A DNA stretch of 63,482 nucleotides, filler included, from Stramenopiles sp. TOSAG23-6 (GCA_900128565.1; 7 parts of 7 records of this genome joined end to end with filler, not necessarily neighbours in it); one strand, 5' to 3'; positions 2,215 to 56,899 are shown, counted from the whole stretch's first letter. Notes: generated by a model from the letters alone, not told the origin. Translations and numbers: made by a program.

Positions 2215-5200
2215 CTATCTTCTGAAATATCTACGTATGCATATTAAAAGAGATATAGCAAAAAGACATTGGACAAGCATCATCAAAAATAAACTTTCGT
2301 CAACCTTAAGTTTTACTCCGTTGTTTCCACTACTACTACCTAATGGAATGGTATGTATTTTGGAAAAATATTTCAAAAAAAAAACTAAAATTTGTTAGGT
2401 ACAAATTTTCGTACGAAAAAGAATCGAATTTGAAAAAAAATAAAACATACATCATACTGTTTCTCTTTTACATTACTTTGATGATTGAAGGATGAGATCA
2501 ATTCATCATTACTATTCGAATTATACTGAGAATTACTCCACCAAACTGACCTTTCTTGTGAACTGTACTGATCAATAATTGATTGGTCGTTTTGAACATT
2601 TTTCAAAACATGAGAAGGATTTTCCACCAAATTTACCAAAATGTTTGCTAAATTTGTCATATATATACTTAGATGTATTCTCAATATAGTTAGATATATT
2701 GGAATCTTTTGTAAGAAATCACTTGTCATTTTCGCAGAATGCTCATTTTGTTTCTCTGTTTGTTCAAGGGAACGATACAATAATACAAGCGCATTTTCTG
2801 GAGATTCCGCTAATCCCCCTTGACCATTTTCATGCATTAATGCTAAATTGAATGTGCCTTGGGGGTCGCCTAAAGAGCTTGCTGTATTATAGAATTTGGC
2901 TGCGAGATTATGATTGATTTTACCATCACTTGGGCCTTGTTGCCAACTATGTCCCATCATATGTTTACGACCATAAAATGCCGCATTTCCTAACCAGAGA
3001 GCAGCCTCTGGACTGCCACCAAGATGTACTGTGAAGAAATATGTTTAGAAAAAAAATGTTAGGTACGGAATTTGGTATGAAATATGAACCAAATTGATTG
3101 TAAAAGCGTACATTAGATTGTTCATAATGATGTTCCGCTATAGCAGGTGCATTAAGCTTCTCATCGAATATATATGCAGCATTGTTCAAACCTGTTTCGT
3201 ATCCCATTTCTCCGCCTTCTACAAATCGTATCACTGCACCTGTGTAGTCTTTTGCAAGAAAACGATTAAATCCTCTTCGGATAACGCCTCCCCATTCTCC
3301 ACCTTCTGCCGCTGCACGAAGATACGCAACAGCTAAATGGCAGTTTCTATCGGCTCCTTTACCTCGTAGATGAACGTCCTTGCCTAATGTATATATACTA
3401 TTGAAATGGCCAAACCGAGAAGCAGCCTGTTCAAAAAAGTAACGCGCTCGGGTATAATTTCGAGGAGTTCCATTGCCTTCAAAATGCATTGTACCTGCAT
3501 TGAAAAATGAATCAGCATTTCCTCCAGCCTTGGCTGCACGCTCAAAATATTCCAGGGCAAGGGTCTTATTTTCTGGTACACCTTGTCCATTGAAATGACA
3601 GTAGCCTAATCCATTCATCGCACCCCAATCATTTTGCTTCGCTGCTTTCTTATAGAGTTCGACAGCTTTCGTCGCATTGTGAGCGACTCCTTCTCCTCTA
3701 ATTAAACAATTTGCAGCATTCATTTGTCCTTCGGCATCGCCAAGCTCAGCAGCGCGATTGAAATATTCATAAGCTCTGCGCTGATCTCTTGGCATTCCAC
3801 GTGCCCCAAAATAATATAACGCACCAGTTGCAATCATCGACGGTATGTGCCCTTGTTCTGCCCGAATCTGTTGGTATTGAATCATTGCGTCACTTTCACC
3901 TCGTTGACCTATCGCCACAAAGTTTTCTGATATCTTTGATAAACGAGGCATCTCATTCAATGGTTGGCGCCCTGTTGAATGGAATCTGTTGTATGATTCA
4001 GAAGCTACATGGGAATAATACATCAGTGCTGCTTCACATGCTCTATCTAAAGATGGTGAAAGACCATTAATCACAGATCCAGGAGGATGTATAGGTTTAC
4101 CATGATGACCATTTATATGTCGATAGGCCAATGATAACTTTGCTTCAAACGATCCCAGGACAGTTGCTACCATGAACATCCCAGTAACTTTTGCTTTCGA
4201 CAAAGCTAGATCTTTTGCATTTCGAATATCTCTTGTTGATGGAGCAATACGTGCAGATTGCCATACTGCTAACGAATATACTGCATCTGCATTACCACAG
4301 AGAGAAGCATCGCGCATTAAATTTTCCCCACGTATCATGTCCCTCGGAAAGTACAATACCTTAGATAATGAAGTTTCTTCGTCGCAAAAATATGTACCTG
4401 TGAAGAGTATACGACTATAAATAATCATTCCTTCCACTTCATGATAAGCAACACTTTCTTCTAATAAGTTCATTATTTCATGCATGTCAGCATTCTTACA
4501 TTTATTTAAAAGTTTTTTTGCATTCATTGCCCGAGAGGTAGAACCTTTTAAAGCTTCTTTCTTTGTTGTAATACTAGTATCTGTATCATTTTCTATAGTT
4601 AGCGCATTTATTTCATTATTATTTTCATGGGATTCATTATCATTTTCGAAACTCAAATCTTTCGTAAAATCTTCGAAAGTCTTACATTGATCACTTTCTT
4701 GAGTATTAAGAATAGTCTTCAACATTTTAGTTGCATAACCTTCTGCTGTATTATTATCCGATAAACTATACCTCCAATGAATACTATCACTTTTTGTGTT
4801 TTCATTTTCCTTTTCTTTATTCTCTCTACTTACAGTCTTAGCACTCATTCTAGAGACTGTTTCTATTTTAACCGCGGCTTCTTCTTCAATTTGCCAAATG
4901 TCTAATACCCCAGGAAATATTTTNAATCGTGAGATCAAACCTCGAAATCCAGGAAACCACGGATCACCACCAATGTACAGATTACCGTCATTAAAAAGGA
5001 CTTCATCATTAAGACTCATCGACACATCAAGAACACCATTTATATATAATGATACTGTAAAATTGTTTTCTGAAATAGTTGATGTATTGTGAAATTTGAA
5101 GGCTAAATGTGTCCATTTCTTCAAAGGAATAAAACTCTGACTCTCACCACCCACATCTTGATGTTGTACAGTGCTTACTTTCATTGTGATGCGCGAAGAG

Positions 5201-5758
5201 CCTGGCAATAACCATGCTGATGGTGTCCTTTGGCCATTAGAGAGACCTTTATAAAATATTCCTCTAAAATGTTCAGCAGGATTGTTCTCGGCAATAAAGA
5301 CCCACATACTTATCGTCCAATTTCCACTGGTGACTTTCGCATTATTTGTGCCAATTTTCTCGGATTTCCCGGAAGTAAAAGAATTATCATTCAATCTATT
5401 ATGTGATACTTCTATGCCATTACTTCCATCAAGTGCTAAAGTCCCTGTGCTATAAATGTATTGTGAAAAGTAAATGTTTTAATTATAAAATTTGTCAGGT
5501 ACAAATTATTTGAAATTGTAGGGTCAAAACCACAAAAAAATGATAACTTTGAAAGTCAAATGAAAACGCGTATAATCGTACACTTCAAAAAAAATGTTAG
5601 GTACAGAATTTTCTATCATAACACGATGAATTTGAAATTCAAATGAACACGTACATTTCTGCAAAACGAGACAACTTTGACTTTTTTGAAAGGAGGATGT
5701 TTTTATCAATAACTAAGGAAGAAGATCGGCCTTTACATTTTTTAACCGTAAACAGCCC
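2215..5758 (-). CDS. SEL1-repeat protein with LamG/concanavalin-like domain and C-terminal TM (SEL1L/Hrd3-like), 5' incomplete
   Basis: LamG-like WTHLAF..LYING and multiple SEL1 repeats. Removing introns 5456-5654, 3024-3111 and 2353-2450 gives one frame ending ...LFLMMLVQCLFAISLLICIRRYFRR* (stop 2215-2217). Confidence 0.8.
2353..2450 (-). other. Family intron GT-AT
   Basis: GAT|GTATGTTTT...GTACCTAAC...AAAATACAT|ACC; restores the C-terminal TM exon. Confidence 0.8.
3024..3111 (-). other. Family intron GT-AT
   Basis: AAT|GTACGC...CAGTACAT|CTT; gives EQSN|LGGSPEAALWLG, in frame with the next ORF. Confidence 0.8.
5456..5654 (-). other. Composite family intron GT-AT (two internal motifs)
   Basis: GAA AT|GTACGT...CAATACAT|T TAT; in frame with the 809-aa ORF. 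Confidence 0.7.
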
Positions 5759-5857
5759 ATGTATTACGAAAAAATATTTCAAAAAAAAAAAAAAATTGTT
5801 AGGTACAAAATTTCGTATGAAAAAATATTCATCCCGAAAATCATGATGAAAACGTAC
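5759..5857 (-). other. Family intron GT-AT at the Sec24/SEL1 junction
   Basis: CAT|GTACGTTTT...GTAATACAT|GGG. Confidence 0.65.
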
Positions 5858-7276
5858 ATGGAACAGTATTTGAGAAACCGCAAATGTTACATTTCCAACG
5901 TCGTCCATTTATTGTAGGAAAATATTCGATATAGTACAAATCTGTTAGGTATGAAAAAAAAAATGAATTAAAAAAAAAAAAAAAAAAAATTCAATTTTGT
6001 TTTGTTAGGTACAAAATTTACTATGAAAAAAAAATAGTACGTACATGGTCTTGAAAGGTTACAAATGGATTTATATAAGCCCTACAACGTTCACATCGCA
6101 CAACTCCACAAGCACCAAAATTGACTACAGGTATTTTTTCATTTTCTTTAGCGGGTGCAAGTGGTCGTATGATACATCCTAATGGCATTTGTGATGCTTT
6201 TGCCATTTGAGCTGATTTTGGGAAAACTTTTGTTGAAAGTCTCCTATAATTTTTAAAAATATTTCAAAATTTTTGATTTTTTATTAGGTACANTNAGTAT
6301 GAAGCAAAATAACATTGAAGTGATCTATGTCATAGAAATCATAGAAATAGACACGAGANACAATTGAAGGATATACTCAACACCCAATAAGTAATACTCA
6401 AAGTCTTTAAAAAAAAATAAATACATTATTATTGACAACTTACATGTACCTCTCATCACATTGAAATTCTTCTTCAATTTGTACCGCATGTTGCTGAACA
6501 GCTGCTTGACCAGGAGCACGACCATGTGTGTTAGGGTACCTACCTGGTTGACCTGGTCTCATGTGTTGCATATGATTCGGTGGTGGTCTGCCATGCATNG
6601 NACCACCNGGTGGAGGATGGGAACCAGGTGGAGGTTGGGAACCAACAGAGTTCATAGGAGGAGCCGGTCTTCCTCCACCCATCATATTATTCATCATAGC
6701 ACTTGGGGGACCACGCCCTCCCATTGGAGAAGGCATAGTATGACTCATTGATGGTGGCGGTGGAGCCATTTGTCCCGACGTTGTTGGTGGAGCTCCGTTC
6801 ATTGAACGAGGAGGTGGTCCTCTTGGAGGGCCAGACATCATTGTTCCAGTCGGTGGTCCTCCCATCATTGATCCAGTTGGTGGTGCACCTACACTCGATG
6901 TTGGTNGTGGTGCTCCTCCCCCCATTGAGTACTGATTATTTGGTGGAACAACTGCAGTATTTGAAAAAGCATGATTAAACGGGTTCGCCTGAGCAGGTGG
7001 TACCTGGGGCTGAGAAACATTTGGCACTCCATATTGTCCNGGAGCAGGTGGTCTACCCATTTGACTGGGGGGAGCATTAAAAGCAGGTGGTGCACCAAAA
7101 GACGTTCGAGGGACAGTTCCCATTGGTGGAGGCATATGCGACATACCAGGAGGACCTGGAGGAATTCCTCGTGGGACCCCCCCCATCATTGGCATTGCTG
7201 GTTTGTTAGCTCCAGGAGCTGATGGTGCACTCCGTGCACTATAGGAAGGAATATTTGGAGGAGGAGCCCCGTACAT
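5858..7276 (-). CDS. SEC24: COPII coat protein Sec24, 5' part only (Pro-rich N-terminus + zinc finger)
   Basis: Spliced: CDERYM|RLSTKVFP...PLGCIIRPLA...VVRCERCRAYINPFVTFQDH|GRRWKCNICGFSNTVP. Introns 6244-6443 and 5907-6044. The rest of the gene is absent. Confidence 0.88.
5907..6044 (-). other. Family intron GT-AT
   Basis: Restores the Sec24 zinc finger QDH|GRRWKCNIC. Confidence 0.85.
6244..6443 (-). other. GT-AG intron carrying the family 3' motif
   Basis: AT|GTAAGT...GTACCTAAT...TATAG|G; RYM|RLST. Confidence 0.85.
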
Positions 7277-7868
7277 TCTGAACACACACAACGACTATTC
7301 ACTACACGATAAGAAACTCACAACAAGCTCAATTTATTCTTCCGATGGCTCTAATATACGTAATAATATTCTGAGCGTGTGGATGTCGTTTGTTGAAGAA
7401 GAAGAAGAGGAGAAGACTTCAAAACGAGTTGAGAGACTGAGTTCGAGTTGAGATTAAATTTTCGAAACAAAATTGTTCTAGATTTCGTGTTTCGTAAAAG
7501 ATCCCAAGTCCTATAATGTAAACTGTAAACTCTTTGGAATAAACACAATTTACCATATTAATTGTAGAATATATATATAATTGCTTTACTGTGTTATTGT
7601 TTTATTGTGTTCGTCTGTTAGTNTGTGCGTGTAAAGTGAGTACGTCTATATATTTTTTAGACTTTTTTAAAGATTTTTAGAAAAAAAAAAATTGAAAAAA
7701 AATTGAAAAATAAAAATGAAATTTCTTTTAACTTTTTTTTTTTATTTTCTATATTATAATAATATCACACCCCATGCATATGACGGTGTTTGAATTATTT
7801 TTATTTTGTAAAGAAAGAACACAGTAGAGTTTGATGTCTTATTTCAATTTCTTTTCCTATACTAATTT

Positions 7869-9902
7869 TTAGACTAATAAATTGAACATTAAAGTTCCAT
7901 CCTTTTTTGCTTGGACTGAATTTTTTTCATCTTTGATTCTGTTATTATTAAATGACATAAAAAACGGATTATTTTGTGAACCAAATGAAAATGATCTCAT
8001 TTTCCGCTTTACATTGGAAATATCTTCTTCAATTACATCAATAACATCAATTTCGTTGTCATTCTGGTCAACTTCAACAATATTTTGACTTTGATGCTTT
8101 GAGTTAGGGTTATATATCCCATGTCGTAATGTTGTTGTAATTGTTTCAGCTATTTCAGCCCATGTCGTCTTTTTATTCGTATCAATGGGAGAGTACCCTG
8201 AACATGAGTGTTTTGAGTTTATTTTTGAATGTTTTGTGTATATTTTGGCTTTTGTAGGCTTCTTTTTGTTTTGTGTTACATAATTTGTCTTTTGTGTTTT
8301 TAGTGTTTTTAGTGGTTGTTGTGTTTTTGTTGTATTTTTGTGTTTTGTATTATTTTTATCGTTTCTATTATTTAGTAAATTATTTTCTATTTGTATGGAA
8401 TTGTGTAAAGCATCTGATGGATGACATATTATTTCATCAGTCATAATATCTTGGAAGTTTTCTCTGAGATGCCTCACATCTTTTTTCTCACCATACCTAC
8501 ACCAAAAAAAAAGGAGTTGATCGACAGCACAACTAAATCTATACGAAAATTCTTTACCTAAACTATTATTTACTGTCATTCCTGTCATTGAAGCAATTGA
8601 TAGTATTTTCTGTTGTGTTTTTTCTTTTTCTATATTCTGATGTGTTTGGTTCATGTTGATCATGCTATGATGAATTAAACGTTCAAAAATAGATGACTCA
8701 TTCAATTGACAAGCAGCTCTATTCCATAGACTACCTAGTTGAAATAAATTTAACCCTGCACTCACACACTTTTGTAATAAAACTGTNGTNCATCGTAATG
8801 TTAAACAAGATTTCTCTTCTAGACCTAAACGTAGTAACTTTTGTTCAAGTGTGTCATAGGCGACGTCTAAAGATCTAATCCATTTTCGAACATCTGTAGA
8901 AAATGCTTCTTTGGATTGTCTCCAGTGTAACCAACAAAATTCAGCTTCAGATAATTCCGTCACAGGNGGCAAAATTAAGCCATGATCGATAGGTACAAGT
9001 TTTTGTTTTGATTGTTGTGAAGCACGGCGTTGTATAATTGGTTTTTGTGTTGTTTGATGNTCACNAAGAGGAGTAGAGTTGAANTGGAGAGGTTCATCAC
9101 TNGAACCTTCCGACACTAATAAATTCCCACAATGTCGGTCTGTATTGAATAGCCATAAATCTAACAGTCCAATACGATGAACACAATCTTTATCAAATAG
9201 ACTTGGTCCTATATCCTCTGATGTACAAGCATGAGGTACGTATTCTTGGAGAGATCCAATCCCAGTTCCTCGNAACTCGTTTTTTTTCATTTTTAATGTT
9301 TTGAGTGTTGTTTCTTCAAAATTGTCACTAAGAATAGAGGAGGAACCTTGATGATGATGTGAAATTATCTCATTCATAAGCTTCATATGAGTACTGCTCC
9401 TTATATCTTTCTCCATGACTGGATTTTCTGGACTTGTTGCTTGAACCAATGCCGTTTTTGGAACTACAGGTGAAAGTTTGGACAACTCAGACACAGTTTT
9501 ATCAAGCATATACGCTGCAACTTCTCTCATGGCTCCCTGACCAACAACAAAACCTCTTCTATGTGGATGTATCGAACCTTGGGTTAGTGCTTCAGCATTG
9601 CCTTCATTCTTGACGAGGACGACTTCCTCCCTGCATGGTTTAAATATTGCTACAGGGTCAGAATATTTTGAATCGTTTTCGTCAAATACTGCATATACAC
9701 CACCAACATTTCCGGCTGATATTGGCTCTAATCGAGTAACAGCTGATGTACGGCATTCGTCATCTACTGGGATGCGTTCGCCTGACCAAATCGGAGCTTC
9801 GCTATTCTGAACTGCAGAAATAAACGCTCTGCTTCCTGCATCTTGGTTACTACTACTCAACAAGGTAATGCGTCTCGATAAAGCAGCTCCACGAGATATC
9901 AT
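7869..9902 (-). CDS. Type II phosphatidylinositol 4-kinase gamma-like kinase
   Basis: AIFKP, REVAAYMLD, GSLQEYVPH, DLWLFNTDRHCGNLL, LVPIDHGL motifs; intronless. Confidence 0.88.
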   Translation of the reverse strand: MISRGAALSRRITLLSSSNQDAGSRAFISAVQNSEAPIWSGERIPVDDECRTSAVTRLEPISAGNVGGVYAVFDENDSKYSDPVAIFKPCREEVVLVKNEGNAEALTQGSIHPHRRGFVVGQGAMREVAAYMLDKTVSELSKLSPVVPKTALVQATSPENPVMEKDIRSSTHMKLMNEIISHHHQGSSSILSDNFEETTLKTLKMKKNEXRGTGIGSLQEYVPHACTSEDIGPSLFDKDCVHRIGLLDLWLFNTDRHCGNLLVSEGXSDEPLXFNSTPLXXHQTTQKPIIQRRASQQSKQKLVPIDHGLILXPVTELSEAEFCWLHWRQSKEAFSTDVRKWIRSLDVAYDTLEQKLLRLGLEEKSCLTLRXXTVLLQKCVSAGLNLFQLGSLWNRAACQLNESSIFERLIHHSMINMNQTHQNIEKEKTQQKILSIASMTGMTVNNSLGKEFSYRFSCAVDQLLFFWCRYGEKKDVRHLRENFQDIMTDEIICHPSDALHNSIQIENNLLNNRNDKNNTKHKNTTKTQQPLKTLKTQKTNYVTQNKKKPTKAKIYTKHSKINSKHSCSGYSPIDTNKKTTWAEIAETITTTLRHGIYNPNSKHQSQNIVEVDQNDNEIDVIDVIEEDISNVKRKMRSFSFGSQNNPFFMSFNNNRIKDEKNSVQAKKDGTLMFNLLV

Positions 9903-10283
9903 ACTTTAGATGTAGTAGAAATATACAAATTCTGTCTACCAACACTAATGTTACTAATAACTATATATAATATCGCTCTACCTACAACGCAATACTAATG
10001 CGAATTCACACACCAACCAATTTGTGTTGAATCTAAAAAAAGAACACAAAAGAACAAAATCTTTTTCTTTGTCGTTTCTGGAAGAATTCTGTAAGCGAGC
10101 GAGTTCCTTTGTCAGCAGGCAGCAGCTGTTCAAAAAAAAAAACTGTAGCAAAATGGTACAAAAATAAAAAATTTGAAAATGCCACGTCGCAATGAAAAGA
10201 TATAGTACCGGGTATCAGTCAGTTCTGATCCACACACGAAAAACCAAAACCAAAATAAATGTAAAAAGTATACAGTGTTCAGC

Positions 10284-10383
10284 NNNNNNNNNNNNNNNNN
10301 NNNNNNNNNNNNNNNNNNNNNNNNNNNTTAATTAATTAANNNNNNNNNNNNNNNNNNNNNNNNNNNNNNNNNNNNNNNNNNNN
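10284..10383. other. Artificial contig linker (N-TTAATTAATTAA-N); identical linkers at 20645-20744, 31004-31103, 41351-41450, 51693-51792, 62012-62111
   Basis: 100-nt N blocks with a six-frame stop cassette. Contig lengths decrease monotonically (10261, 10259, 10247, 10242, 10219). Confidence 0.97.
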
Positions 10384-10500
10384 TTTCNTCNTGATTTTNA
10401 GATTTTTTTTTTATAGAAAATTTTGTACCTAAACAAAAAAGTTTTTTTTTTACGATGAAAATTTTGTACCTGACAATTTTTTTTGAAATATTTTTCACAG

Positions 10501-40393: not shown

Positions 40394-40888
40394 CTATAAT
40401 ATAAAGTCAACCATCCACTTTATTCTCTTGGAATAATCCCCCGTATGATATTTTGTTTCCTTAAAGTGCGCGGGCGAAGGTGAGTTTTGTGAGGCTGCAT
40501 GACCTCCCCTTTGCTCTTTTTTGCGCGTCTTCACTGAATCGTATCTCATTTGAAATGTTGACCGATTATCACTGTGAGGTGCACGTGACTGATTGTTTCC
40601 ATGCCCAGCACTATAACGACGGTTACTTGCATTCAAACCGGGGTGAAATACACTACCCCAAACTTCTTTACTCCGTGAATTGTGTCGATTTAGAGTATTG
40701 TTTGAATGGTTTCCAAGTAAAGCTTTGCAATCACTTGGAAGTTTTAAGAAAGGTAACTTCTTACTTAGATCCCTGCAATATGACTCTTTATCCTTCTTTG
40801 ATTTTGAATTTGTATTGTCACTCGGTGTTTTTTTATTGGAATTCTCCTCAACGCGGTTGAATTCTCTTTGCATTGTTCCCCTCCACAT
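40394..40888 (-). CDS. Hypothetical protein
   Basis: Hydrophilic ORF, probable start at MWRGTMQREF; no family recognised. Confidence 0.45.
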   Translation of the reverse strand: MWRGTMQREFNRVEENSNKKTPSDNTNSKSKKDKESYCRDLSKKLPFLKLPSDCKALLGNHSNNTLNRHNSRSKEVWGSVFHPGLNASNRRYSAGHGNNQSRAPHSDNRSTFQMRYDSVKTRKKEQRGGHAASQNSPSPAHFKETKYHTGDYSKRIKWMVDFIL

Positions 40889-41450
40889 TGAAGTATGTGT
40901 TTCTTGTATAATGAACCAGTAAAGATAGAAGATATTGTAAGAGTGGTTAGTCGGCCATTCATGTAAATTCATGTTGGAATTTACTTTTTGACCACTTCGA
41001 TTTTCAGGCGTATATTTCGTGTTGTGTTCGCGTGTCAGTCAACTCAACGGCAGTTACAAAGACATTACACAGTAATAGTATCACCGTTCGTCTGTATTTT
41101 AACAAAAACCACCGGTGATCATTTCACTGCCACAAAACATGTGGTTATTATTCATAAGTATTATAGTTTTAGTATATACCACTGATTCAGCAATGACAAA
41201 TTCGCCTCCAGATAAATATAAATCCTGGACAGATATTCTCGAGCTATCAGATCGAAAAATGAATTGTACAAGCTTGGCAGATTTAGTGTCCAAGTCAGGT
41301 GACTGGTTAAATTTCCCTCTATTTCAAACAGAATATGATGCACTAACAAANNNNNNNNNNNNNNNNNNNNNNNNNNNNNNNNNNNNNNNNNNNNTTAATT
41401 AATTAANNNNNNNNNNNNNNNNNNNNNNNNNNNNNNNNNNNNNNNNNNNN

Positions 41451-43895: not shown

Positions 43896-46800
43896 TCCCT
43901 TACATGGAGTAACTTCTAGTTTTCCACCTGTTTCTTCAGTGCCTGGCAAACATTTTATAGATCCACCTTGATAACCTCCACTGGCACAAAGAACAGGACA
44001 AAATCCATTGGTAGGCACACCTTCACATACAGATTGAAATGGAATCGCTGAAACAGAAACTCCATCTACCTTAGATATTGTATTAATTCCGTTAAAAGGT
44101 CCCACGCGACCTTCCAATGAATCGTTCTTACAGTGACCATTTATAGGCGTACAACGTGTAACTTTAAATTGACCATTTGATTGGCACTGTATAGATCCCT
44201 TTTCATAACCATAATCACATTTTATTGAACAAACGTTATTCGTAGCAGTAACTCGGCATGGCATTGTGTTTTGCTCCGTGCTATATTTATTACGGTCGCG
44301 ACCATCTACTGATAGAATATGCAAATCACTCCAATATGCGGATGAGAATTGGCTAACAGTAGTATCCCAATGTGTAGAACAAAATCCACTAATTGGTGAA
44401 CATGGCTTCAGTACGAATAATTTACTCGTGCTATCACATGTTATAGATCCATTCTCGTAACCCTCCAAACATATTGTGTCGCATTTTTCATTCGCTTTGG
44501 TGCTTTTACAAGGTTCGAAGTTTTCGATATTATTTTCATATCCGTCAATTAGTTTCATATTAAGATTATTTTTTGTACTTTGGTTCAAACCACCAATATC
44601 ATCTTGACAGTATGACGACTGTGCTGTACACGCAGTTGCAGTAAATAAACCAGTAGTTTCACAAAATACTTTCCCTCCTAAGTATCCATCAATGCAAGTA
44701 ATAGGTATAGATTGATTTGTGCTCAAATTAGTAAATTCGCCCAAGTCCTTGATTTGGTACTTTTTGACATTATTTGAAATATATTTTTCAAAAGTTGAAG
44801 CGTTCTGTGAACAAAAGTTAGATATTGGCTTCGCACTAACAATGGCAAATTTTGGGCCATTCTCAGTTCCAGTACACGTAACACTACCCCCTGTATATCC
44901 TGGTCGTGTGACTACTGTACAAGATGTATCTGTTTTGAGACCTTGAAGAGTAGTACATGTTATGGTTTTCAAATGATGCGATGCAAAGTTTGACAATTCT
45001 ACTTGAGCTGTACCATCACTACCGTCTGTACCATACAAAGTATTGCAGTAGTCTGTTACAGGCACAGCAGTTGCCACGGAAAAGTCGCCATCACCCTGAA
45101 GCCTTCTACCTAAACCTTGTGTGCGTCGTCGAGAAGACTGAGCCAAACAAACTACATTGCCATTTTCGTAACCTGGACGCATTACAGTATGGCAATGCGT
45201 ACCTGTTGCAAGTCCATTGTTTGTTGAACAAGCGACACTCTTGAAGTATCCTGCATCTAACTCTGAAGATGTGAAGAAGTTATCAGATGGTTTTGTATGT
45301 CGTGAAAATCCAGGAGGTGATGTGTTGCTAATCCATGTGTTATATGATGACACCTTCTCGTTAAATTTTTCTAAGCAATAATTTGAGACACCGCTGCACG
45401 ACTTTACCTGAAATTTACCATTTGATTTACACGTTACATTTCCTCCTTCATATCCTTTTCGGCATAAAAAATGGGGACACACTTGGTCGGTTCCAGTAAG
45501 ATCGCATGCATCACCAGTCAGATAATAATTATCACTTTTCGTATATTTCAGCTGTGATTTAGTGTACCCTAAATTACTGCTGAATGGTATGCTATCATCG
45601 CAATGCGAACCAATTGGCACAGACGATATGATTTTATACTTCTGATCATTACTACATTCAACGCTACCATTTTGATAACCTGCAACTGATTTCGTTTGAC
45701 ACAGCGTACCAATTTGCTTGGCACTGCTACAGTTTTTAGAATCATACTCAAGATGATGAGTGTCTTCATCTAGAAGAGGTCCGATGCCACTACAATAATC
45801 CAAAATTTTAGTGCATGGGCTAGAACTGAACGTACGATTTGATTGACATTGAATTTCGCCTCCAGAATAACCATCATTACATGTGTGTGAACACGTTTTT
45901 CCTGTTTGGGTATTTCCACAGTATTTTGCATCTGAGGGATTCATACTCAGGGGATTCATATTCAGGGCCTTCAGTTGATCTTCAGTCAAAGCATTTACGG
46001 CACAGTGACCTGCTATTCCCACAGGTTTTTGTTCTAATTGTAAACGAGGACCTGCAGCAGTTCCCACGCACTTCACTTTACCCCCCGAAAAGCCCATGGA
46101 TTCCTGAACAGTACAATATGTATCAGTCGTAGACCCTCCACCGACACCACATGATATATTGCTTATATGATTAGTTGGATCATTTATTATTGAAGGAATA
46201 TTCGTTGCATGAATAGACGAACAGTGATCAGGAATTGCATTGCATTTACGGAACCCGAATTTGTTATCCAGCACTTTACCACCACATGTAGAGTCTCCAG
46301 TAGGGCAACTGCATGTAATACTACCACCTACATAGCCGTATTCGCATGCAACAGGACAGTCACTTAAAGCAGCAGTTGTACTACATGTGTTACCATCAAA
46401 AGTGACAAGAGTATCGCCACCAATCGTTCTCCATTTCATTGAGGATGCACCGGTAGCTCTAAAAGCTGTTTCTAGGGCATTAGAATCGCCAGCACAGTAG
46501 CTTGATCGGGGCGTACATGGTGTCACTTCATAAAAACCATCCTCCTTACACTGAATGCTACCGTTTTCATGTGAGTCCTTACATAATACTGGACAAGGTT
46601 GATCAACTCCATAACCATTACATGCAGTTGGATCCTCTAAAATCACAGACACCTTTTTTAAATCAATAGTTTCCATAGCTGATAAAGCATTTAGCTTGTT
46701 TGAATTGGATGATGTATTCCATGAATTGTCATTATTGCAATGATTATCATCTGGAATACATGCTTTCATTGTGTAATATCCATTTCCCTTGCATTGCACC

Positions 46801-49800
46801 GAACCTCCAATAAATCCATCCATACATGTCAAGGCACAGTAACCATCAGTACTTGTTGTTTTGCATGTGTTTTTTGAAAATGACGATATTTCTTCGCCAT
46901 CTAACAATTTATATTTGTTGGTCTCCGCATTAGCTTTGTGTGTGTTTGTCATATTTGAAAACCCAGCTTGACAATGACTTTTTATTGGTGTACATGGTAC
47001 CAAAGAGAACTCTTTGTTTACATTACACGTAATACTACCATTTTCATAGCCATCTACACATCTAGTATCACACGTTGCAAATGCACTCACTGTCTTGCAG
47101 GTATTAAGTACATACCCATTACTGACATCATTACCATTAACCAGCTTCATATTATGTGCCTGTTTGTCAAAATATGTCTTAAAATTTTGGTCGTGGAAGG
47201 CACAGTAACTCGATATTGGTGTACATGATCCTATCCATCTGCCTTCAGTGCTATCACTCTTTCTCTGCCAAACCGGCGAACCTTGGTAACCCTCACTACA
47301 TGAACACACAGCTCCAACCAAGTTATACCCCTTGCCAGTGCAACCAACTGTAACTACTACGTCAGTGCAATCTGCATTTTGCCATGATTTAGAAAAACTA
47401 TTCCATGATATGATTTTATTGTTTTTGGGAATGTAACCTGTTTTGCAATAACAATATCCACTGCCTTTATCAACATTATTGCCATTACAAGAAGACTCCC
47501 TACTTCCACATTTTACCAACGCGAATCGTTCGTTGGCTTCACATGTTGCACTTCCATCACTAAAACCATCTTTGCAGATAACTGCGCAATTTCCATCAGT
47601 CGAAGTATTTGCGCAGGTATCTACTGTAATTTCAGAGTCTCCACCAAGAGTCTTGAAATTAGCTTCACCGAAATCACTTTTAAAAACATTAAACACAGAT
47701 GAACCTAATTTCTTCAAATTACAATGTCCTGGAACAGCAACACATGTACCAGTCCATGTAGCAGACTCAAAATTCCATTGTTTAGTACCAGTATATCCCG
47801 TGTCGCAGGTACAAGAGCCAGGGGAATATTTGTGACCTTTTGCAGTACACCCAGAATTCTCAGCAGTACAAGAACCTGTCCAGGACCAAACATTGTCAAC
47901 TTCTTTCCATAATATATTCACAGCTTTATAACCTGTATCACATGTACAAGTACTTTTGTTGTTTGCCGAAGAATAAACCATTTTTGGCATATCACAACCT
48001 TTATTAGAAGATGTACAAGGGGTAACCTCATAGGTACCGGATGACTCACATTCAATGCGACCACCATCAAAACCAATCTCACATTCTAAGTTGCAAATGC
48101 CAAATGCGTTGAGCATTTCACATGCACGGTGATCAACATTTTCTACGAGTGCACCATCTACTTTGTGAAAGTGATAGACAGATGTATTTTTAGCTTGTGT
48201 TTCAACGCTGTCACTAGCACAGTGTAGGGTAGATACTGTGCAACTTCCAGTCCATGTTTTACTATCAGCATTCCACGCAATATTACCAGAGTAACCTGCA
48301 TTGCAAGTACATGTGCTAGTACCAGCATTTGTATCATATACATGTTTTTTGCCAGTACCAGCGCACGACACTGGTTCACAGCTACCTGTCCACTGTGGTG
48401 GTGATGAAGACCAGCTGATAACGTCCACTTCCTTTTCCTTGAACCCAGTTTTGCAAAGGCATCCCTTCACACCCTCGCCTGAAGAATCCATACCAACACC
48501 AGAACAACCTGTGTTAATATCCTGACAAGCATTTACAGTGAACTTACCATTTGATCCACACAGTAATGAACCATTTCCATAACCAAGTTCACAGGTAGTG
48601 TCTCTACAGTTTGAAAATGCGTCTGTGTCATTACACCAACCACTTCGTGGCATCATGTGCAAAGTATAGAGAAGAGAAGTAATCACTGATGCTGTTGATG
48701 GGCATCTATAGCAATCATCCTCAATTGTAACAAAACCGATAGATACACCAAGCTCCTTGGCCTTACTTGCACATTCATCATTCGAATATTTTACTCCGGG
48801 AGGGTTTAATTGTTGAGTAACATCATCACACGATGTATCAGGAAGAATCATTTCCTTGTTAAATATTTTAGCGAAATGACCAGCTGAAATATCTGCATAT
48901 GTAAATTGATGTAACTTACAGTGTTGGGGGGTGGGTACACACAAACCTGTCAGACACATAATTCCAATTTATTGTCTGCCCACCAGCACCTGCATCTGTA
49001 GTATAACCAGTCGAACATTTACATTGATCGGCCTCGATCGTAAAACTTGGACCAGTACATCCATCTGAAGTTTGGCTGCAAGTCCCAACAAACTTTTCCA
49101 ATGAATTATTCCAAGATATACCAGCACTGCCTTTATACCCAACGTTGCATCCACACGTATGAGAATCTACTTTATATTTATGATCAATAGCAGAACAACC
49201 CTGGCTAGTCGCGGAACAAGTGCCTTTCCACTTACTATTACTTACATCCCAAGAAATGGTGTTGTCACCAGTGTACCCCGCAGCACACTCGCAGTGAGTT
49301 GTCGAGGAACTATCATACTTAAACTCGGGCGTTGTTGTACAACCATTATCACTTGGAGTACATGGGTTCACTGTAAATGAACCAGATGCACTACAGGACA
49401 CAGCGCCATTAATATATCCTGGTTTACAAGTTATTGAACAGAGCGACAATGCATCTACACCATTACATGAATCATTATCCAACCCATCAGAAACATCTAC
49501 ACCGACCGTTTTGCCTGCAATAGAGCTGAAACTTCCAGTTCTAACGGCAGATATGTTTAATGTACCATCACAATAGTTTTCAACTATAGTACATTTATCA
49601 ACTTTAAATTCCCCATTTGCTTGGCATGTTATACCCCCAGCTTTATAACCATCCAAACACGTGTGTGTGCATGAACTAAAAGCAAATGTATTATCACATG
49701 TGGTGCTTGAAAATGATTCCACAGTTTTGTCATCGATAGTCTTCATGTTGAACCCAGCAACACTAAAATTATCATTCATACAATGTTTCGCTGTTGGGGT

Positions 49801-51692
49801 ACAATTTACAACTGAAAATTTACTAGTATTTAAACATGTAATGCTACCTCCAGAGTAGCCTGCCTTACACGTTACTGGACACGTATTATCGGTGGCGGTG
49901 TCATTACAAGTATTAATATTCCAAGCGTCAGTTCCACCAACGTCTTTTGTATGCTGTACACTCAGATTCGAATTAAGCCAAACATTATCGTCTTTACAAA
50001 ATTTTTGTATCGCCGTGCACTTAACAATTTGAAAAGTACCTGTTGAAGCCAGACACTTCACTGTACCGCCAATATACCCAGATTGACACTCCACAGCACA
50101 CTGAGCGTCTGCAGCTGTGTTTCCACATGTACTTGCAAGAGTATCCGTAACATTCACACCATCTACTTTACTTATATAAGTTTCATTGAAAGAACTTGGT
50201 GATAAATCTCCGCTACAATAAGATGCTTTTGGTGTTGCCGGTACCACTGAGAGAGTACCGTTGATAACATCACCAGTACATTTCACAGATCCGTTCTCAT
50301 AACCGTCCAGTGGCACGACGTTGCAAAAAGTATCTGTAGCATAGCCTCCAGTGAGTGAACAGTCAACACTTTTGAATTTTTGCAAAGTCCAATAAGCTCC
50401 ATTTTTACTAGAATAATCAACTTCACAGTGTCGCACTTTTGGTGTAGATTTGATAACAGTATATGTTCCACCAACTGGATTTATATTAGCCGTGCATTTT
50501 GCACTGCCGCCTTCGTAACCTAAACGAGGGACAACTGCACAATATGTATTCGTACGCAAACCTGTTTCGGTCAGACACGTCACTGAAGTAAAGAAATTGT
50601 TATTCTTGACTAATTCCGTAAAATGTGTAGAAAATGCAGATGTACAATGATTTGCGTAACCAGTACATGCAGTTACCTTGTATGATCCATCAGATGAACA
50701 TTCTACATTACCTGATTCGTATCCATCAGAACATGTAATTGTCTTAACACAAGATGGTTCACTTTCTCCTGGTGCGCATCCGCATTTCGCATCAGTAGCG
50801 GTACCATCACAGATATTTCCTGTTCCAGTATATGTCTCGCCACCTAGCTTTTTTATGTAATTATTATCCATGTCATTACTTGAAGAAAACGGCGCAGATG
50901 CATCACAATGTGTACCCTTTGGAGTTGCTGCTACAATAATGTAGGTACCACCAGCAGAACATGTTATAGACCCTCCAGAGTATCCTTCTGCGGGAACTAC
51001 GGTGCACTTCTCGCCAATTGTCTTTTTACCGGTACAATCTGCAGAAATAAAATGGTGCTGGGCTCCAAAAGCCGGTGCAGAACCACTACAGTAATTTTGA
51101 ATTAACCCACAAGGTTGTATGGAATATAAACCAGTCTCCGCTGTACATGTTACCGAACCACCTTCATAGCCATCAATACATATATGTGAACATGCTTCTG
51201 TTGCTTTTGTACCATTGCATGTAGTTGCATTTACGGAGGTACTTTCTATACCACCCACTGTCTTAATAAACACATTATCTCGAGTTACACCACCGAAATT
51301 TGAAACTGATGACATGACATGACTATTACAGTGACCAGCAATAGTAGAACACGAAGATACGTCCCACACAGACCCGTTCCACGTAGGGGTGCCAGTGTAT
51401 CCATTTGAACACTCACATGACCCATCCCCGCCCGTGCCTTTCGGACTCGTGCAAGTAGCTTTCTGGTTGTTACACAAACCTTCTAAGTTTTTTGGTGACC
51501 ATGCACCGTTCTTACATTCTGGGATGTTAGAAGAGTCCTTTGAATAACCTTTGGTACAAACAAATGAAGCAAAGGAACCTTGCTGACGTTGAGAAAAATT
51601 AGAGGCAGCGGGATTGGTGTAGCTCACGATACCATTAAGGATACTCTGATTGGGACATGTTTGCACCAAACATGTTCCACTCCAACTACCAG
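43896..51692 (-). CDS. Fragment of giant Cys-rich repeat protein (sushi/EGF-like; frameshift near 48950)
   Basis: ORFs 48916-51669 and 43857-48959 carry the same two repeat types; N-terminal sushi-like C..GY...C.NG.W. Confidence 0.78.
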
Positions 51693-51796
51693 NNNNNNNN
51701 NNNNNNNNNNNNNNNNNNNNNNNNNNNNNNNNNNNNTTAATTAATTAANNNNNNNNNNNNNNNNNNNNNNNNNNNNNNNNNNNNNNNNNNNNAAAA

Positions 51797-51845
<49 letters not shown>

Positions 51846-51855
51846 GGTAAAAATT

Positions 51856-51900
<45 letters not shown>

Positions 51901-51925
51901 TAAATTTAAAATATAAAAAACCTAC

Positions 51926-53521
51926 ACATTCTAGGAAATGATTACAACGCGTAAACACACCTTGCCACGTGTCATCTTCCCAAAAGAAATCTGGAATGTC
52001 TAATAACATGCTGTGTAAATTCACAGCAGATTGAAGAACGAATAATCTGCCAATTTCTTTGCAAATTGTCTCTTCTTCTACCTTTACTTTTAGGAAAATA
52101 TTAAAATATTTTTTCTTAGGTACAAATTTTTTTTACGAAAAAAAAAAATTTTTACGAAAAAAAAATGATAAAATGAAAAATGGTTAGGGTTAGGGTTGAA
52201 AACGTACATGTAAACTTCCATCATCAGCCATTAATCGAGGAAAATGTTTGGAATGTTCGATGGCCTCATCAGCACGAAATTCAAATGTTGATAACAACAC
52301 GGATTGTGAAAAAGTATTTCAAAAACAAAATCGTTAGGTACAAAATTTCGTATAAAAAAAATAAATTCGAAATTGAAATGAAAACGTACACGGATTGTGC
52401 AAATGCAAATGAAACTGCCAATTTTTCCTCAGGGCTGGTTGTTGANAAAACAACTTCGTCTCTTTTGATNCCGGATTTAATACCAAATTTGAAAATCATG
52501 TATAGTAAAAAATAAATCTTCAATTTGAAATTGGTCAGAAAAAAATCGTTATGTACAAAATTTTCATAGTAAAAAATAAATCATTATGAAAAACANACAT
52601 GTCATCAGACTCAATTTCTTTGAGGGATTCCGTTTCAAGTCCATTTTTCCGNATAGATTTCAACAAAGATGTATTGGAAAAAAATATTTTTGTATTTTGT
52701 TAGGTATGAAATTTCGTACCAAAAAAAAATTGATAAAAAATTGAAAAAAAATTAGACATTAGGGTTAGGGTATTCTATTTAGAAAACCTACAGAGTTCAG
52801 CTTCCTTTGTTAATCCCCAAAATACAACACAACCAAAGGAAAATATAAAAATATTCGCTGATTTGATAAGCTTTTCTTCTATATAATGACTACTGGGAAA
52901 GCGAATATACGTGAATAAATATTTCAAAAATTTATTTTCGTTAGGTACGAAATTTCATGGTAAAAAAATAAATTGAAAATTCATGATGAAAAAAAAAACA
53001 TACATGTTTTNTGTTGACGAAGTTTCTTTTTTGGTTGCTTCATCCAATGTATCTACACCCGAATCAGATGCACTGGCATCAGATCGTTGATTTACCAAAG
53101 TACTGTGAAGCTTTTGTGCTTCCAAAATATCAGCTTTGTATGTTTTGGGGAATACGTGTAACTCCTCCATATACATAAAAGAACCCCATTGAGGACCTAA
53201 ACCGTCTATTCTATTAATTANACTTTTCATTTTCTCAGTATCTATTGTTTTACATGTACAATATGCAGAAATTACACCTTTTGGAGCTTGGCCATGACGT
53301 GGATGGTACTTACGGATACGTCGCTTGGATTTTCGGAAACTATATTTAGGGTCTAGTTCCCGTGGAAATCCAATTGGGTTAATTGAGCTATAGCTAGGAT
53401 TGGATTGACGATACGTTTTTAACTCTGCGCCTTTGTTCCTTGTTAAGCCCATTAACTCCGAGTTAGTTGCAGTCACTTTCTTAGCAAACCATCCGGGTTT
53501 ATTCGATGATTTAGGTAACAT
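51926..53521 (-). CDS. DUF155/RMD1-family protein, 3' incomplete
   Basis: ISAYCTC, IFIFSFGCVVFWGLT, DDM, EEKLAVSFAFAQSV|LLSTFE, IGRLF...VNLHS.LLDIPDFFWE after removing five introns. Confidence 0.87.
52082..53003 (-). other. Five family introns: 52905-53003 (AT), 52669-52791 (AT), 52498-52598 (AT), 52299-52389 (GT), 52082-52207 (AG); a sixth starts at 51925
   Basis: Excision restores the DUF155 motifs in one frame. Confidence 0.82.
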
Positions 53522-53681
53522 TTTTNGAATCGTTGACCAGTTTTTACTGTAGTGTTCTACCTTCAAATAAAAGAAGATTTTGATAGCCAATGCCAATAGT
53601 ATAAACCCTAACCCTAATCGTAATGTAACTTTTTGTATTGATTTTTATGTTGTTCTGTATTAGTTTACCAGTTCGAGTTAA

Positions 53682-54662
53682 TTACAGTTTATGATATATT
53701 TTATCTTTGTGATGTCCTCTCTTGCTTACATGTTTTGAAAGTATTTCTGTCTGTTCTGGTGCATGTTTTGAGAAAAATCCGAAAAGTATAAGGAGAACTA
53801 TCATACCACAGTACTGAAGATATTCTCTTCGATTGCCTCGTTCAATACTATGTCTTTTAAATATAGTATATTTCTCTGTAGACACGTAAACATCCCAATG
53901 ATCTTCTATTTCGGATTTATTGGGAACATAATCCCAAATCAAAACTGCTGCAGCTCTTGTTGTAACAATTGCACCCACTAAAACTGTTGCAACAGTCTGT
54001 CTATGATAAAACGCGTCACGATGTCTTATCAGACTATAACGGTAAGATGCTATGAACCCAATAAATGCTGAAAATATATATTGCATCATCCATGGTGCGC
54101 TTGATATCAGATCTGCGTTTAAAATTTGATAAATAAATTCACCAAAGAGAAAACCAGCCGCAAACATATATATAATTAATGCTTTCCTTGGTGACTTTAT
54201 AAAAAAGATGAGGCATAATAAAGCTGCAGTTGAAGCAGCGGCTATTGATATATAGAATTTATGTTTAAGTGGGTCTGATGACCACCGTGCCCAATCGATG
54301 TGTACTCCAAAGAGGAACCAGAACAAACAGTGACCCATCAAGCACGCAGCTCCCATTATAATTTTTACTTTATCATATTTAGAGTACAAAAAAATGGAAA
54401 AAAGTCCAAGAACGATTAAAAAACCTTCATAGACTTTCACAATCNTATTACTGTGAGGTAAAGGCTTGGTTGTGGTGTTTGTGATGGAAGAGTCTGTTAT
54501 TTTATATGTTTGATCCTTTCTGAAGACACTTTGCCTTTTAGCTGTATTTTGCCTTTTAGCTGTATTTCCTTTGGGTACTACTTCCGTTATTTGTAAAGCT
54601 TCTTGCGCAGCGACTGTTTGAAGAAGGATGATAAATACTAGGGAAAGATCCCGTAATGACAT
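53682..54662 (-). CDS. Signal peptide + multi-pass membrane protein (TMEM198/DUF4203-like topology)
   Basis: 326-aa ORF with about 7 hydrophobic segments. Confidence 0.6.
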   Translation of the reverse strand: MSLRDLSLVFIILLQTVAAQEALQITEVVPKGNTAKRQNTAKRQSVFRKDQTYKITDSSITNTTTKPLPHSNXIVKVYEGFLIVLGLFSIFLYSKYDKVKIIMGAACLMGHCLFWFLFGVHIDWARWSSDPLKHKFYISIAAASTAALLCLIFFIKSPRKALIIYMFAAGFLFGEFIYQILNADLISSAPWMMQYIFSAFIGFIASYRYSLIRHRDAFYHRQTVATVLVGAIVTTRAAAVLIWDYVPNKSEIEDHWDVYVSTEKYTIFKRHSIERGNRREYLQYCGMIVLLILFGFFSKHAPEQTEILSKHVSKRGHHKDKIYHKL

Positions 54663-54947
54663 AGTTTCAGCAATTTCAAGTTAATCTGTTTCTTTAGACC
54701 AAACACTGCTTTTGATGAGACATTTTGTCTTTGTGAATTGAAATGATACCGTATCTTGTTTCGGCTGAGAGAGATTTAAAAAAATTTGAAATTTAATTTG
54801 GAAACCCTAACCCTAGCTAGATGGTCGACGACATCGATCATCAGCACAGGCACACAAGTGCCACAAGCACAAAAAATATAAGAAAAAGATATGTTTTTTC
54901 CTACGTACAAGTTTTCAACGAAGAGAGATCATACTACTAAAGTGCAA

Positions 54948-56238
54948 ATGTCAAAGTCATTCGCAGAATGCATTCTTAATGGTGAAGCTGAAGCCGTATC
55001 TGAAATCCTCAAGAAANCTGANTCGCCAGCGCAGTTTTCTGCCAAAAAAATTAATAATNGTTTAACACACTTTCATCTGGCGTGTATGTCAGGACATAAA
55101 AATATTGTTGACATCATATTAAAAGCTGCAGGTTCGGGTATTCTTATGGAACAAGATGCACTGCAACGTTTCCCAGTATTTTGTGCGATTGAAAAGGGAC
55201 AAATAGAAGTATCGAAATTACTCATTGAAAAACTTGATGAAAAGAATTGGACTTCAAAAATGCTCATGAGACTTGATAGCCGTGGGTTTAACTGCATTCA
55301 TCTCGCAGCAAGATGTGGCGACTCAAAAACATCGGAATCACTTCTCAGAATTGTTCTCCCATATGCAACTACTGCACAAGATATATATACTCGTAGCTCA
55401 AGTGGACTTTCCTCATTAGACTTTGCTGCAGCGACTGGTGCAGCGGTTTCAGTGAAACTACTGCTAGATAGACTTTTCAAAATATTAACTACAAATAGTG
55501 AGAACTCTTCAAAAAATATAGTTATTGATGAAACGTTTTTGGAATTTACAAATACTGCTCTATTGTTAGCTTGCAAAGAAGGTCATAAAGATGCAGCTAT
55601 TAATCTTGTTGCTGGTGGTGCTAATGTAGATATTATTGGTCCGGATGGCATGTATGTTTTAATTTTTTTTCAACTTCGTTTTTTTTTTCGTACGAAATTT
55701 TGTACCTAACGATTTTTTTTTGAAATATTTGAGTGTCGCGCATTGGGCCTTTTCGCTAGGACACGAGAGCTTAGGCATTTGGTTACTCAAAAAGAGTTCT
55801 AATCCAAGTATTCTCAATAAAGATGGTAAAACAGCAAATGAGTGTTTACCACCACCAATTCCATTAGTAAATGATTCTAGTTTGATTAAACAGAAAGTGA
55901 AAATGTCAATTGCTCCGCCAAGTTTAACAGCTACACAAAAAGATAAAATTTTCAAAGAAATTCAAATTGTACAAGAAAATGACAAATCATGGTTAGAGAG
56001 TGCTTCAGGTAAAAAGTTGAGACAGTTAATTAGTTCCTTTGTTGGCTTAGTTTTAGAAAAGCAGCCAAACAACGTACATTTTCATTATGAATTTTTTACC
56101 GAATGTTTTTTTTCATGCGAAATTTTATACCTAACAATTTATTTTTGAGTGTTTTTGTTTTTCACAATATAGGATAATGAAATAGAAAAAATTGCGATTG
56201 ATTTTTTTGTGAAAAATCGGGGGAAATCGACAACTTGA
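54948..56238 (+). CDS. Ankyrin-repeat protein with C-terminal RIIa/Dpy-30-like segment
   Basis: THFHLACMSGH, NCIHLAAR, TALLLACKEGH; VLEKQPNN|DNEIEKIAIDFF. Introns 55652-55730 and 56074-56172. Confidence 0.8.
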
Positions 56239-56899
56239 ATTTGAAATGCACATTGAAATGCACATTGAAATGCACATTGAAATGCACATTGAAATGAACA
56301 TTGAATTGAAGATAAATCAAAATATATTTTTTATTGTATTTTTACAACGTTTCCTTTTGTTTTTTTAGATATTGCTGAGTGTATCGATGAAATTATTGTT
56401 TCTTTTTGAGATGGGCTGCATAACTTGTCAAGTTTTCCCTGTAATAGTGTACTAATTTCTTTGGTAACTACACTCTCTATTTCTTTCTCAGATAATGTTG
56501 AACAATTATTTTGTTCGTTTATAGAATTGATTATAGTATCATTACTTTCAGTAGAACTTTTAGAAGTTGTAAAATGCCGAGGAGAAAAAATTGGAGAAAT
56601 TTCCTTATTATCATTGTCAAATTCAAGAGCTAGAATGAATTCTAAATAATCAAAGTCAAATGTATTATCATTATAACCTCCATACTTTTCATGATTAATA
56701 AAATACGCGAATAATTCTGCATACTCTTCAAACGTTCCCCGAATTTGGAGCGCTCTCATTCCCATTTCAAATGTCGGAGGATTAATTTCCCCTCCACGAT
56801 GAATGTATTTAGAAAAAATATTTTATATTCAATTTGTTTGTTAGGTACAAAATTCCGTACGAAAAAAAAATAAATTTGAAATTAATTTTGAAAACGTAC
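55652..56899. other. Family introns 55652-55730 (+, ends TT, 3' block missing), 56074-56172 (+, AG), 56803-56899 (-, AT)
   Basis: In-frame joins PDGM|SVAHW, QPNN|DNEI, PLGI|HRGG. Confidence 0.72.
56241..56306. repeat. 12-bp tandem repeat TTGAAATGCACA x~5
   Basis: Directly visible, immediately after the ankyrin gene stop codon. Confidence 0.85.

Follow-up and report, generated by a model that had tools for sequence, protein, structure and literature searches.

Probable introner-type introns, most of them ending in AT, in a fragmentary eukaryotic assembly

The AG at the end of an intron is among the most constant signals in eukaryotic genes, and the spliceosome reads it twice. The stretch of DNA considered here (the window, 63,482 bases of short contigs chained by N44-TTAATTAATTAA-N44 spacers) raises the question of how an intron might end without it, since its genes are repeatedly interrupted by short, similar elements that begin with GT and mostly end in AT. 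A sequence-only reading of the window had counted about 33 complete interruptions on four contigs and proposed a candidate new splicing system. The four contigs stand, and 31 complete interruptions could be delimited, in at least 10 genes. The elements are probably one family of short introner-type introns, and the spliceosome removing them would be of the major type, with U, C, or G tolerated at the last position. A "new splicing system" goes beyond the evidence, which is fitted by a spliceosomal introner variant with a relaxed last base.

The shared block architecture and motif repetition described in that reading are borne out. The core motif TTGTACCTAAC, allowing at most one mismatch, was found 32 times, whereas 100 shuffles averaged 1.08 occurrences and never gave more than 4; the copies form one alignable family. 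They are about 80–200 nucleotides (nt) long, and run from a 5' GTAYGTTTT through a variable spacer to TACGAAATTTTGTACCTAAC, a T-rich stretch, a GAAATATTTTT box, and in most cases an AATACAT end. Alignment of 21 simple copies gives the consensus ATGTACGTTTT ... TACGAAATTTTGTACCTAAC ... GAAATATTTTTTCA-AATACAT, with G1, T2, and the ACC-AA core of the branch box the same in all 21; T runs follow the box. An internal 20-nt block terminates in this box, TACCTAAC, which we infer to be the branch point. The likeness to introners also holds, in that there is a single sequence family, with two linked 5' subfamilies, one starting GTATGTTTTATTTTTTTT and the other GTACGTTTTCATCATGAATTTC. Pairwise identity among copies is 53–85% (67–85% to the nearest neighbor). 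Conservation is higher in the signal blocks than in the spacers, which points to common descent plus selection on the signals; by their sequences, the copies share descent and are not very young.

For each copy the start was taken as the invariant GT and the end as the family-aligned 3' end. Three acceptors (11556, 12244, and 55730) were picked with the frame or homologues in view, and the rest from the family alignment alone. Complete copies and pieces are listed here by position in the window; in the text, a single coordinate usually names a copy by its 5' end.

near 289, minus strand: 5' intron piece starting there
2353..2450, minus strand: intron, 98 nt, GT..AT, LamG/Sel1-repeat gene; frame open 198/45 codons, family alignment
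3024..3111, minus strand: intron, 88 nt, GT..AT; frame open 789/212 codons
5456..5654, minus strand: composite intron, 199 nt, two elements, GT..AT; two branch boxes, frame open 84/830 codons
5759..5857, minus strand: family copy, 99 nt, GT..AT; frame not restored
5907..6044, minus strand: intron, 138 nt, GT..AT (AAAT), within Sec24 zinc finger; Pfam zf-Sec23_Sec24 continuity
6244..6443, minus strand: intron, 200 nt, GTAAGT..AG, family-type 3' half; frame open 283/74 codons
10384..10505, plus strand: intron 3' part at contig end, ends ACAT; from sequence
10905..11001, plus strand: intron, 97 nt, GT..AT, slide 0, NhaB variable loop; frame open 143/182 codons
11374..11556, plus strand: tandem double element, 183 nt, GT..AT, NhaB; gap-free against 10 homologues
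11897..11992, plus strand: intron, 96 nt, GT..AT, NhaB; Pfam NhaB profile, 10 homologues
12149..12244, plus strand: intron, 96 nt, GT..AC, NhaB; gap-free against 10 homologues
13568..13667, plus strand: intron, 100 nt, GT..AG, universal-stress-protein gene; frame open 279/85 codons
18528..18624, plus strand: intron, 97 nt, GT..AT; first of six phase-chained introns
18711..18821, plus strand: intron, 111 nt, GT..AT; phase chain
18898..18994, plus strand: intron, 97 nt, GT..AT, no slide possible; phase chain
19147..19245, plus strand: intron, 99 nt, GT..AT (AAAT); frame open 101/248 codons
19975..20075, plus strand: intron, 101 nt, GTTTGT..AT; frame open 257/190 codons
20259..20360, plus strand: intron, 102 nt, GT..GT (ACGT); end from family alignment
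20587..20644, plus strand: intron 5' part at contig end; from sequence
~20792: 3' intron piece ending there, cut by contig end
21115..21272, plus strand: intron, 158 nt, GT..AT, alpha/beta hydrolase; gap-free against 3 homologues, AT-AC register impossible
21366..21495, plus strand: intron, 130 nt, GT..AT, alpha/beta hydrolase; gap-free against 3 homologues
21600..21754, plus strand: intron, 155 nt, GTGCGT..AT (GTAT), TTAGGG repeats, hydrolase; gap-free against 3 homologues
22048..22151, plus strand: intron, 104 nt, GT..AT, alpha/beta hydrolase; gap-free against 3 homologues
25798..25887, minus strand: intron, 90 nt, GT..AT; frame open 95/188 codons
26154..26260, minus strand: intron, 107 nt, GT..AT (ATAT), diverged copy; frame open 266/107 codons
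52082..52207, minus strand: intron, 126 nt, GT..AG, DUF155 gene, CCCTAA repeats; DUF155 profile spacing
52299..52389, minus strand: intron, 91 nt, GT..GT (CCGT), DUF155 gene; DUF155 profile spacing
52498..52598, minus strand: intron, 101 nt, GT..AT; continuous DUF155 reading frame
52669..52791, minus strand: intron, 123 nt, GTAGGT..AT; reading frame
52905..53003, minus strand: intron, 99 nt, GT..AT (ATAT); reading frame
55652..55730, plus strand: 3'-truncated copy, ankyrin gene; 79 nt ending TT or 82 nt ending AG, both in frame
56074..56172, plus strand: intron, 99 nt, GT..AG; frame across junction
56803..56899, minus strand: intron, 97 nt, GT..AT, EF-hand gene; frame open 819/157 codons

With these boundaries, a single reading frame is open on both sides of the junction in 30 of 31 copies, where one in three would be expected by chance, so that the earlier claim of restored frames holds for all but 5857-5759. 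Six introns in a row in the gene at 17852-20644 have phases that fit together as a chain. Ten junctions are exact to the residue, by homologues or by Pfam profile continuity: four in the hydrolase, three in NhaB, one in Sec24, and two in the DUF155 gene. The hydrolase exons joined at their four junctions align without gaps to three homologues at 46–53% identity, and the three testable NhaB junctions (11374-11556, 11897-11992, 12149-12244) are gap-free against ten full-length homologues. Orthologue alignments had been named beforehand as a place where other boundaries might be demanded; at these junctions they ask for none. The Pfam NhaB profile reaches position 319 at the final residue ahead of 11897 and picks up at 320 with the first one beyond 11992. 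In Sec24, positions 2-19(20) of zf-Sec23_Sec24 fall on the exon upstream of 6044, with 19 at its second-last residue, and 21-36 follow from the first residue after 5907. Across both 52389-52299 and 52207-52082, the DUF155 profile runs from 83 to 117 with no change of spacing. Other places are uninformative: the NhaB junction at 10905 falls in a variable loop that cannot be aligned, a third DUF155 stretch has a four-position difference in a loop, and for the last hydrolase intron (from about 22208) a scan of donor and acceptor pairs against homologue C-termini favored no pair. As judged from these alignments and frames, restoration of the proteins requires exact removal of GT..(mostly)AT units.

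Over the 31 copies the 3' ends are AT in 23, AG in four (13568, 52207, 56074, and 6443-6244), GT in two (20259 and 52389), AC in one (12149), and TT or AG in one (55652, which would bring the AG count to five if it uses AG). This is close to the previous tally of 25 AT, four AG, two GT, one AC, and one TT. The ten verified junctions have a similar range, with seven AT and one each of AC, GT, and AG. Counting 55652 as TT, 27 of 31 thus end otherwise than in the AG of major (U2-type) introns. The second-last base is A in 26 of 28 introns in one tally and in 28 of 31 in the full table.

Whether AT is the true end depends in part on register, and for each copy all registers giving an identical mRNA were listed. 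GT-AT is the sole possible register at 10905 and 18898, while 18528, 18711, 21115, 21600, and 26260 admit only TG-CA or TG-TA besides. One could suppose instead that new copies are really AT..AC introns, the AT at the exon end being intronic and the final AT exonic, with other ends used only by decayed copies. The upstream exon does end in AT in 20 of 31 cases, a two-base slide to AT-AC leaves the mRNA unchanged in 11 of 31, and ATGTAT/ATACAT make up a 6-nt inverted repeat. The slide is however impossible in the other 20, including the homologue-verified junctions at 21115, 21600, 11374-11556, and 6044, and GT at +1/+2 is invariant while the exon base at -2 varies; an AT..AC register is accordingly considered unlikely. 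GT-AT is taken as the real register, being the one that every member of the AT class can share, with G1 and T2 invariant.

Whether an AG close by is used can be examined at several copies. Five AT introns (11897, 18528, 19147, 52598, and 3111) have an AG 26–35 nt past the branch A and 5–20 nt before the used end. This AG lies 5 nt upstream of the end in 3024..3111 (+30 from the branch) and in 18528..18624, and in 19147..19245 a TTCTTAG is bypassed 7 nt upstream of the end. The three checked (3111, 18528, 19147) are out of frame, the one at 18528 running into a stop. On the other side, were the AG 9 nt beyond 11556 used, three residues conserved throughout the ten NhaB homologues would be lost. 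At 21366-21495, singled out earlier as lacking a usable AG, there is indeed none from the branch box to the 3' end or within 25 nt downstream. Frames and homologues together thus show the nearby AGs as unused. AT alone is not the signal, as there are 3–10 AT dinucleotides between branch and end.

The exon side of the junctions has a pattern of its own. Upstream exons end in T in 28 of 31 cases, in AT in 20, and in CAT in 13; with CAT also at the intron end, both cut sites therefore tend to follow CAT. The length shared between exon and intron ends averages 2.07, compared with 1.70 when pairs are shuffled, and 202 of 10,000 shuffles reach the observed value. The likeness is mostly family-wide, with pair-specific repeats weakly above it. 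The AT at the intron end persists where the exon-end AT is absent (11 of 31), an absence that could equally come from later mutation of the exon copy after a duplication. The exon-end AT would fit a 2-bp AT target duplication with a drifted exon copy, preferential insertion at such sites, or splicing that favors U at exon position -1. No empty sites or transposase for the family were seen, and no copies in other sequence collections.

One junction departs from this pattern in degree: at 52389-52299 the upstream exon and the intron finish with the same 10 nt, far beyond the usual 2–3 nt.

The other signals bear on which machinery might be involved. Among 28 introns tallied at the 5' site, +1 is G and +2 is T in all, +3 is A in 25, +5 is G in 25, and +6 is T in 26, giving a consensus of the GTRNGT kind, as in major (U2-type) introns. 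From the branch A to the 3' end is 31–51 nt in 27 of 28 introns with a branch box detected, a spacing that is narrow, as the sequence-only reading had it, but not confined to the 30–45 nt that it gave. The outlier measures 95 nt, yet has a second branch-like box nearer its end. That reading had also drawn an analogy with U12-type introns, and removal by a minor (U12-type) or U12-like spliceosome, tolerant of odd 3' ends including GT-AT, would be a natural alternative. In the accessible part of a study of Physarum (10.1101/2020.10.12.336362), GT-AT accounts for 17% of 1,014 non-canonical U12-type introns, and the U12 branch motif reported there, TTCCTT[G/A]AC, shares CCT-AAC with TACCTAAC; extended, rigid signals are found in both. 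The analogy fails, however, on the defining 5' motif: [G/A]TATCCTT is in none of the 28 copies, where positions +4 to +6 are YGT, with G at +5 in 25 of 28. The distance from branch to 3' end also differs, 31–51 nt here versus 9–12 nt for the Physarum U12 introns in the same partial source. A minor-type spliceosome thus seems improbable. An intron defined by its structure, as in euglenids, was also rejected, with GT invariant and no stable pairing of the ends: all eight copies that were folded did no better than shuffled sequence (z -0.04 to -1.41).

A few internal features may be mentioned beside these signals. The block before the branch box holds a perfect 12-nt palindrome, TTTCGTACGAAA (for example at 18752-18776), and GTAC recurs at the 5' end of the copy, in the core, and near the 3' end. 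Some introns are composite, with tandem or nested elements or two branch boxes (11374-11556, 5456-5654, 5907-6044, and 21366-21495); at 11374-11556 the end of the first element abuts a second GTACG, and stepwise removal is conceivable. Telomere-type TTAGGG repeats of two to three units occur 10 times in the window, with 0.16 expected (21611-21622, 52184-52195, 52759-52770, 20193-20210, 27296-27307, 53606-53617, and others). Several lie inside introns and directly follow the 5' motif, pointing either way, while a coding exon holds one.

In the explanation considered probable here, each copy would bring its own signals, namely a GTAYGTTTT 5' site (usually placed after an exon ending ...CAT), the branch box TACCTAAC, a U-rich tract with the GAAATATTTTT box, and an AATACAT-type end. 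Removal would be from RNA, by splicing, which can be proposed with confidence because the copies are strictly sense-oriented and carry splice-type signals. The machine would be the major (U2-type) spliceosome, as suggested by a 5' site of the GTAYGT kind and by the absence of the U12 motif [G/A]TATCCTT. Its second step would require that the last base be preceded by A and that the site lie at the proper place downstream of the branch and U-tract, and would accept U, and sometimes C or G, as the final intron base. The family would have spread by copying.

Excision from DNA, as with the internal eliminated sequences of ciliates or an excising transposon, is an alternative to splicing, and might account for the short direct repeats at the ends (AT, or 10 nt at 52389-52299) and the short inverted repeat. 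It would not need the co-orientation with the host gene that had been claimed and that holds for every copy (31 of 31 sense to the interrupted reading frame). The copies also have conserved 5' splice-site and branch-type signals, and the elements are present in every gene copy seen in the assembly. It is regarded as very unlikely.

A broader version of the splicing explanation is put forward tentatively, at somewhat less than an even chance: that the major spliceosome's end rule has shifted in this lineage, with GU-AU as the standard intron form genome-wide. The base beside both cuts would have gone from G to U, giving CAU|GUAYGU and ACAU| instead of CAG|GU ... CAG|. Matching changes would be predicted in the 5' end of U1 and in the branch-binding box of U2 (one extra base to pair with TACCTAAC), along with changed readers of the 3' site (the U2AF small subunit, Prp8, or second-step factors). 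The new rule could then have been exploited by a mobile element that duplicates a 2-bp AT target and so spread as perfect introns.

Several points weigh against removal as major-type introns with AT ends. The sample is limited to one window of 63 kb, from an assembly that is fragmentary, of low coverage, and rich in Ns. Colinearity cannot fix the register where exon and intron ends share bases, and AT-AC is equally possible in 11 of 31 copies. An Rfam scan of the window gave no matches, to small nuclear RNAs (snRNAs) or otherwise. Near-identical, transcript-derived proteins were not found in three protein searches: a hydrolase exon gave three matches at 46–53% identity (longer proteins only), the 243-aa exon of the gene at 17852-20644 none, and the last NhaB exon 319 matches among representatives, the best at 60–62%. 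The assignment of the organism (below) hangs on one protein match at 78% and on a presumed reading of its name tag. Finally, the copy at 5857-5759 does not restore the Sec24 frame, the one failure among 31.

This last copy, with the fragmentary assembly and its many Ns, could also suggest that the precise non-AG introns are mimicked by repeat-induced misassembly, amplification chimeras, or pseudogenes, since it connects part of Sec24, out of frame, with unrelated sequence. Against this, the frame is restored in the other 30 copies, ten junctions are exact relative to independent proteins or profiles, the terminal T recurs in 23 independent copies, and an independent seawater metagenome run holds 54% of one contig's sampled words. 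A general artefact is thus hardly credible, and the failure at 5857-5759 is plausibly a chimeric join of two copies in assembly or amplification. The surrounding sequence (5655-5906, minus strand) is peculiar in its own right: Sec24 stops after the zinc-finger exon, and beyond the next copy, out of frame, comes a LamG/Sel1-repeat gene that has no relation to it.

Intron-generating repeats, or introners, are described from Micromonas, Aureococcus, fungi, dinoflagellates, and others in the accessible parts of two reports (PMC12130899; PMC7789003). The present family resembles them in its many similar short copies in unrelated genes, co-oriented with transcription and carrying their own splice signals, and in having short direct and inverted repeats at the ends and no coding capacity. 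It is unlike them in that those described have canonical ends, as far as the text available from one report goes (PMC12130899), whereas 27 of 31 here are non-AG and 23 are AT. In that same partial text, a 2025 survey, the 3' sites are AG and AC, and families with unfamiliar ends were dropped unless supported by RNA.

Another comparison is with Amoebophrya, where, in the part of the source at hand (PMC7789003), introns are mostly non-canonical and there are repeated families, the introner families having 3–5 nt direct repeats over their boundaries and inverted repeats at their ends. The Amoebophrya introns are however described there as having no preferred end dinucleotides and 8–20 nt hairpin-forming inverted repeats, with no U1 found, in contrast to the strict 5' GT and branch box, dominant AT end, and lack of a significant fold seen here. 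U12-type introns likewise have extended rigid signals and tolerate non-AG ends, but the GT-AT class dominant here is a rare subtype in Physarum, to judge from the available portion of that study (10.1101/2020.10.12.336362). Tunicate genomes with mostly non-GT/AG introns and a retained spliceosome offer another parallel, with the difference that both ends vary there and changes in U1 and U2AF are reported (PMC13326754, available in part), while here only the last base departs.

Intron-poor lineages with yeast-type signals have a GTAYGT-type 5' site and a long, fixed branch box, but AG ends. No description of a lineage or family dominated by GT-AT introns was found in the literature, and the accessible main texts of three papers on MAST organisms (PMC5778133, PMC12614181, PMC8163842; supplements aside) have nothing on introns or splicing of this kind.

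A family so dominated by AT suggests splicing machinery with an altered rule for the intron end. If this is true, a free-living lineage with about three quarters of its sampled introns ending in AT, and with 5' and branch signals of the textbook kind, would amount to a natural experiment in site choice at the second step, and would show co-evolution of snRNAs and 3'-site proteins with introns. Gene finders that assume GT-AG would break most intron-bearing genes in such organisms, and introner surveys that filter on familiar ends would miss the family, which is also a case for testing how a mobile element creates exact introns.

Beyond the delimited copies, a degenerate one at 14040-14130 (plus strand) has a weak 5' end and a truncated 3' end and lies outside long reading frames. 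It is downstream of the universal-stress-protein gene, and may be an intron in an untranslated region or a dead copy. Introns without the family features were not found in the window, although the scan of open reading frame pairs was noisy and gene models are incomplete; one long pair (27237/27060) was rejected as a non-family intron, being an intergenic gap. Elsewhere, the pattern TAYGRAATTTTGTACCTAAC had three matches in metagenome contigs and three in genome contigs (sludge metagenomes, bacterial metagenome-assembled genomes). These are taken as chance; the one inspected is not this family.

The host is probably an uncultured, AT-rich marine stramenopile of the MAST-3 type. This assignment comes from a single protein, encoded by an intron-less PIG-M reading frame, for which a EukProt entry tagged GSMAST32 is the best match, at 78% identity, with oomycetes next at ~40%. 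The tag is presumably that of a Genoscope MAST-3 single-cell assembly.

Such assemblies have an N50 of 6–7 kb in the accessible part of one report (PMC5778133). Single Ns are scattered throughout the window, as expected of a low-coverage assembly. Of the sampled words of one contig, 10–14% occur in poly(A) metatranscriptome runs. The gene content is eukaryotic, including PIG-M, a PI 3/4-kinase, Sec24, Arf, and ankyrin and EF-hand proteins; the Arf and PI 3/4-kinase reading frames, like that of PIG-M, have no intron. The GC content is 28–38% on intron-bearing contigs and ~40% on two middle contigs (31106-51690). The latter have giant uninterrupted reading frames of 3018, 1703, and 924 codons, with no Pfam match and no family intron, and may be of different origin or represent an unusual gene class. 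The NhaB gene (10507-12634, plus strand) gives this eukaryote a bacterial-type Na+/H+ antiporter; a long loop is inserted in the protein, and several public homologues with the long loop are 56–62% identical to it.

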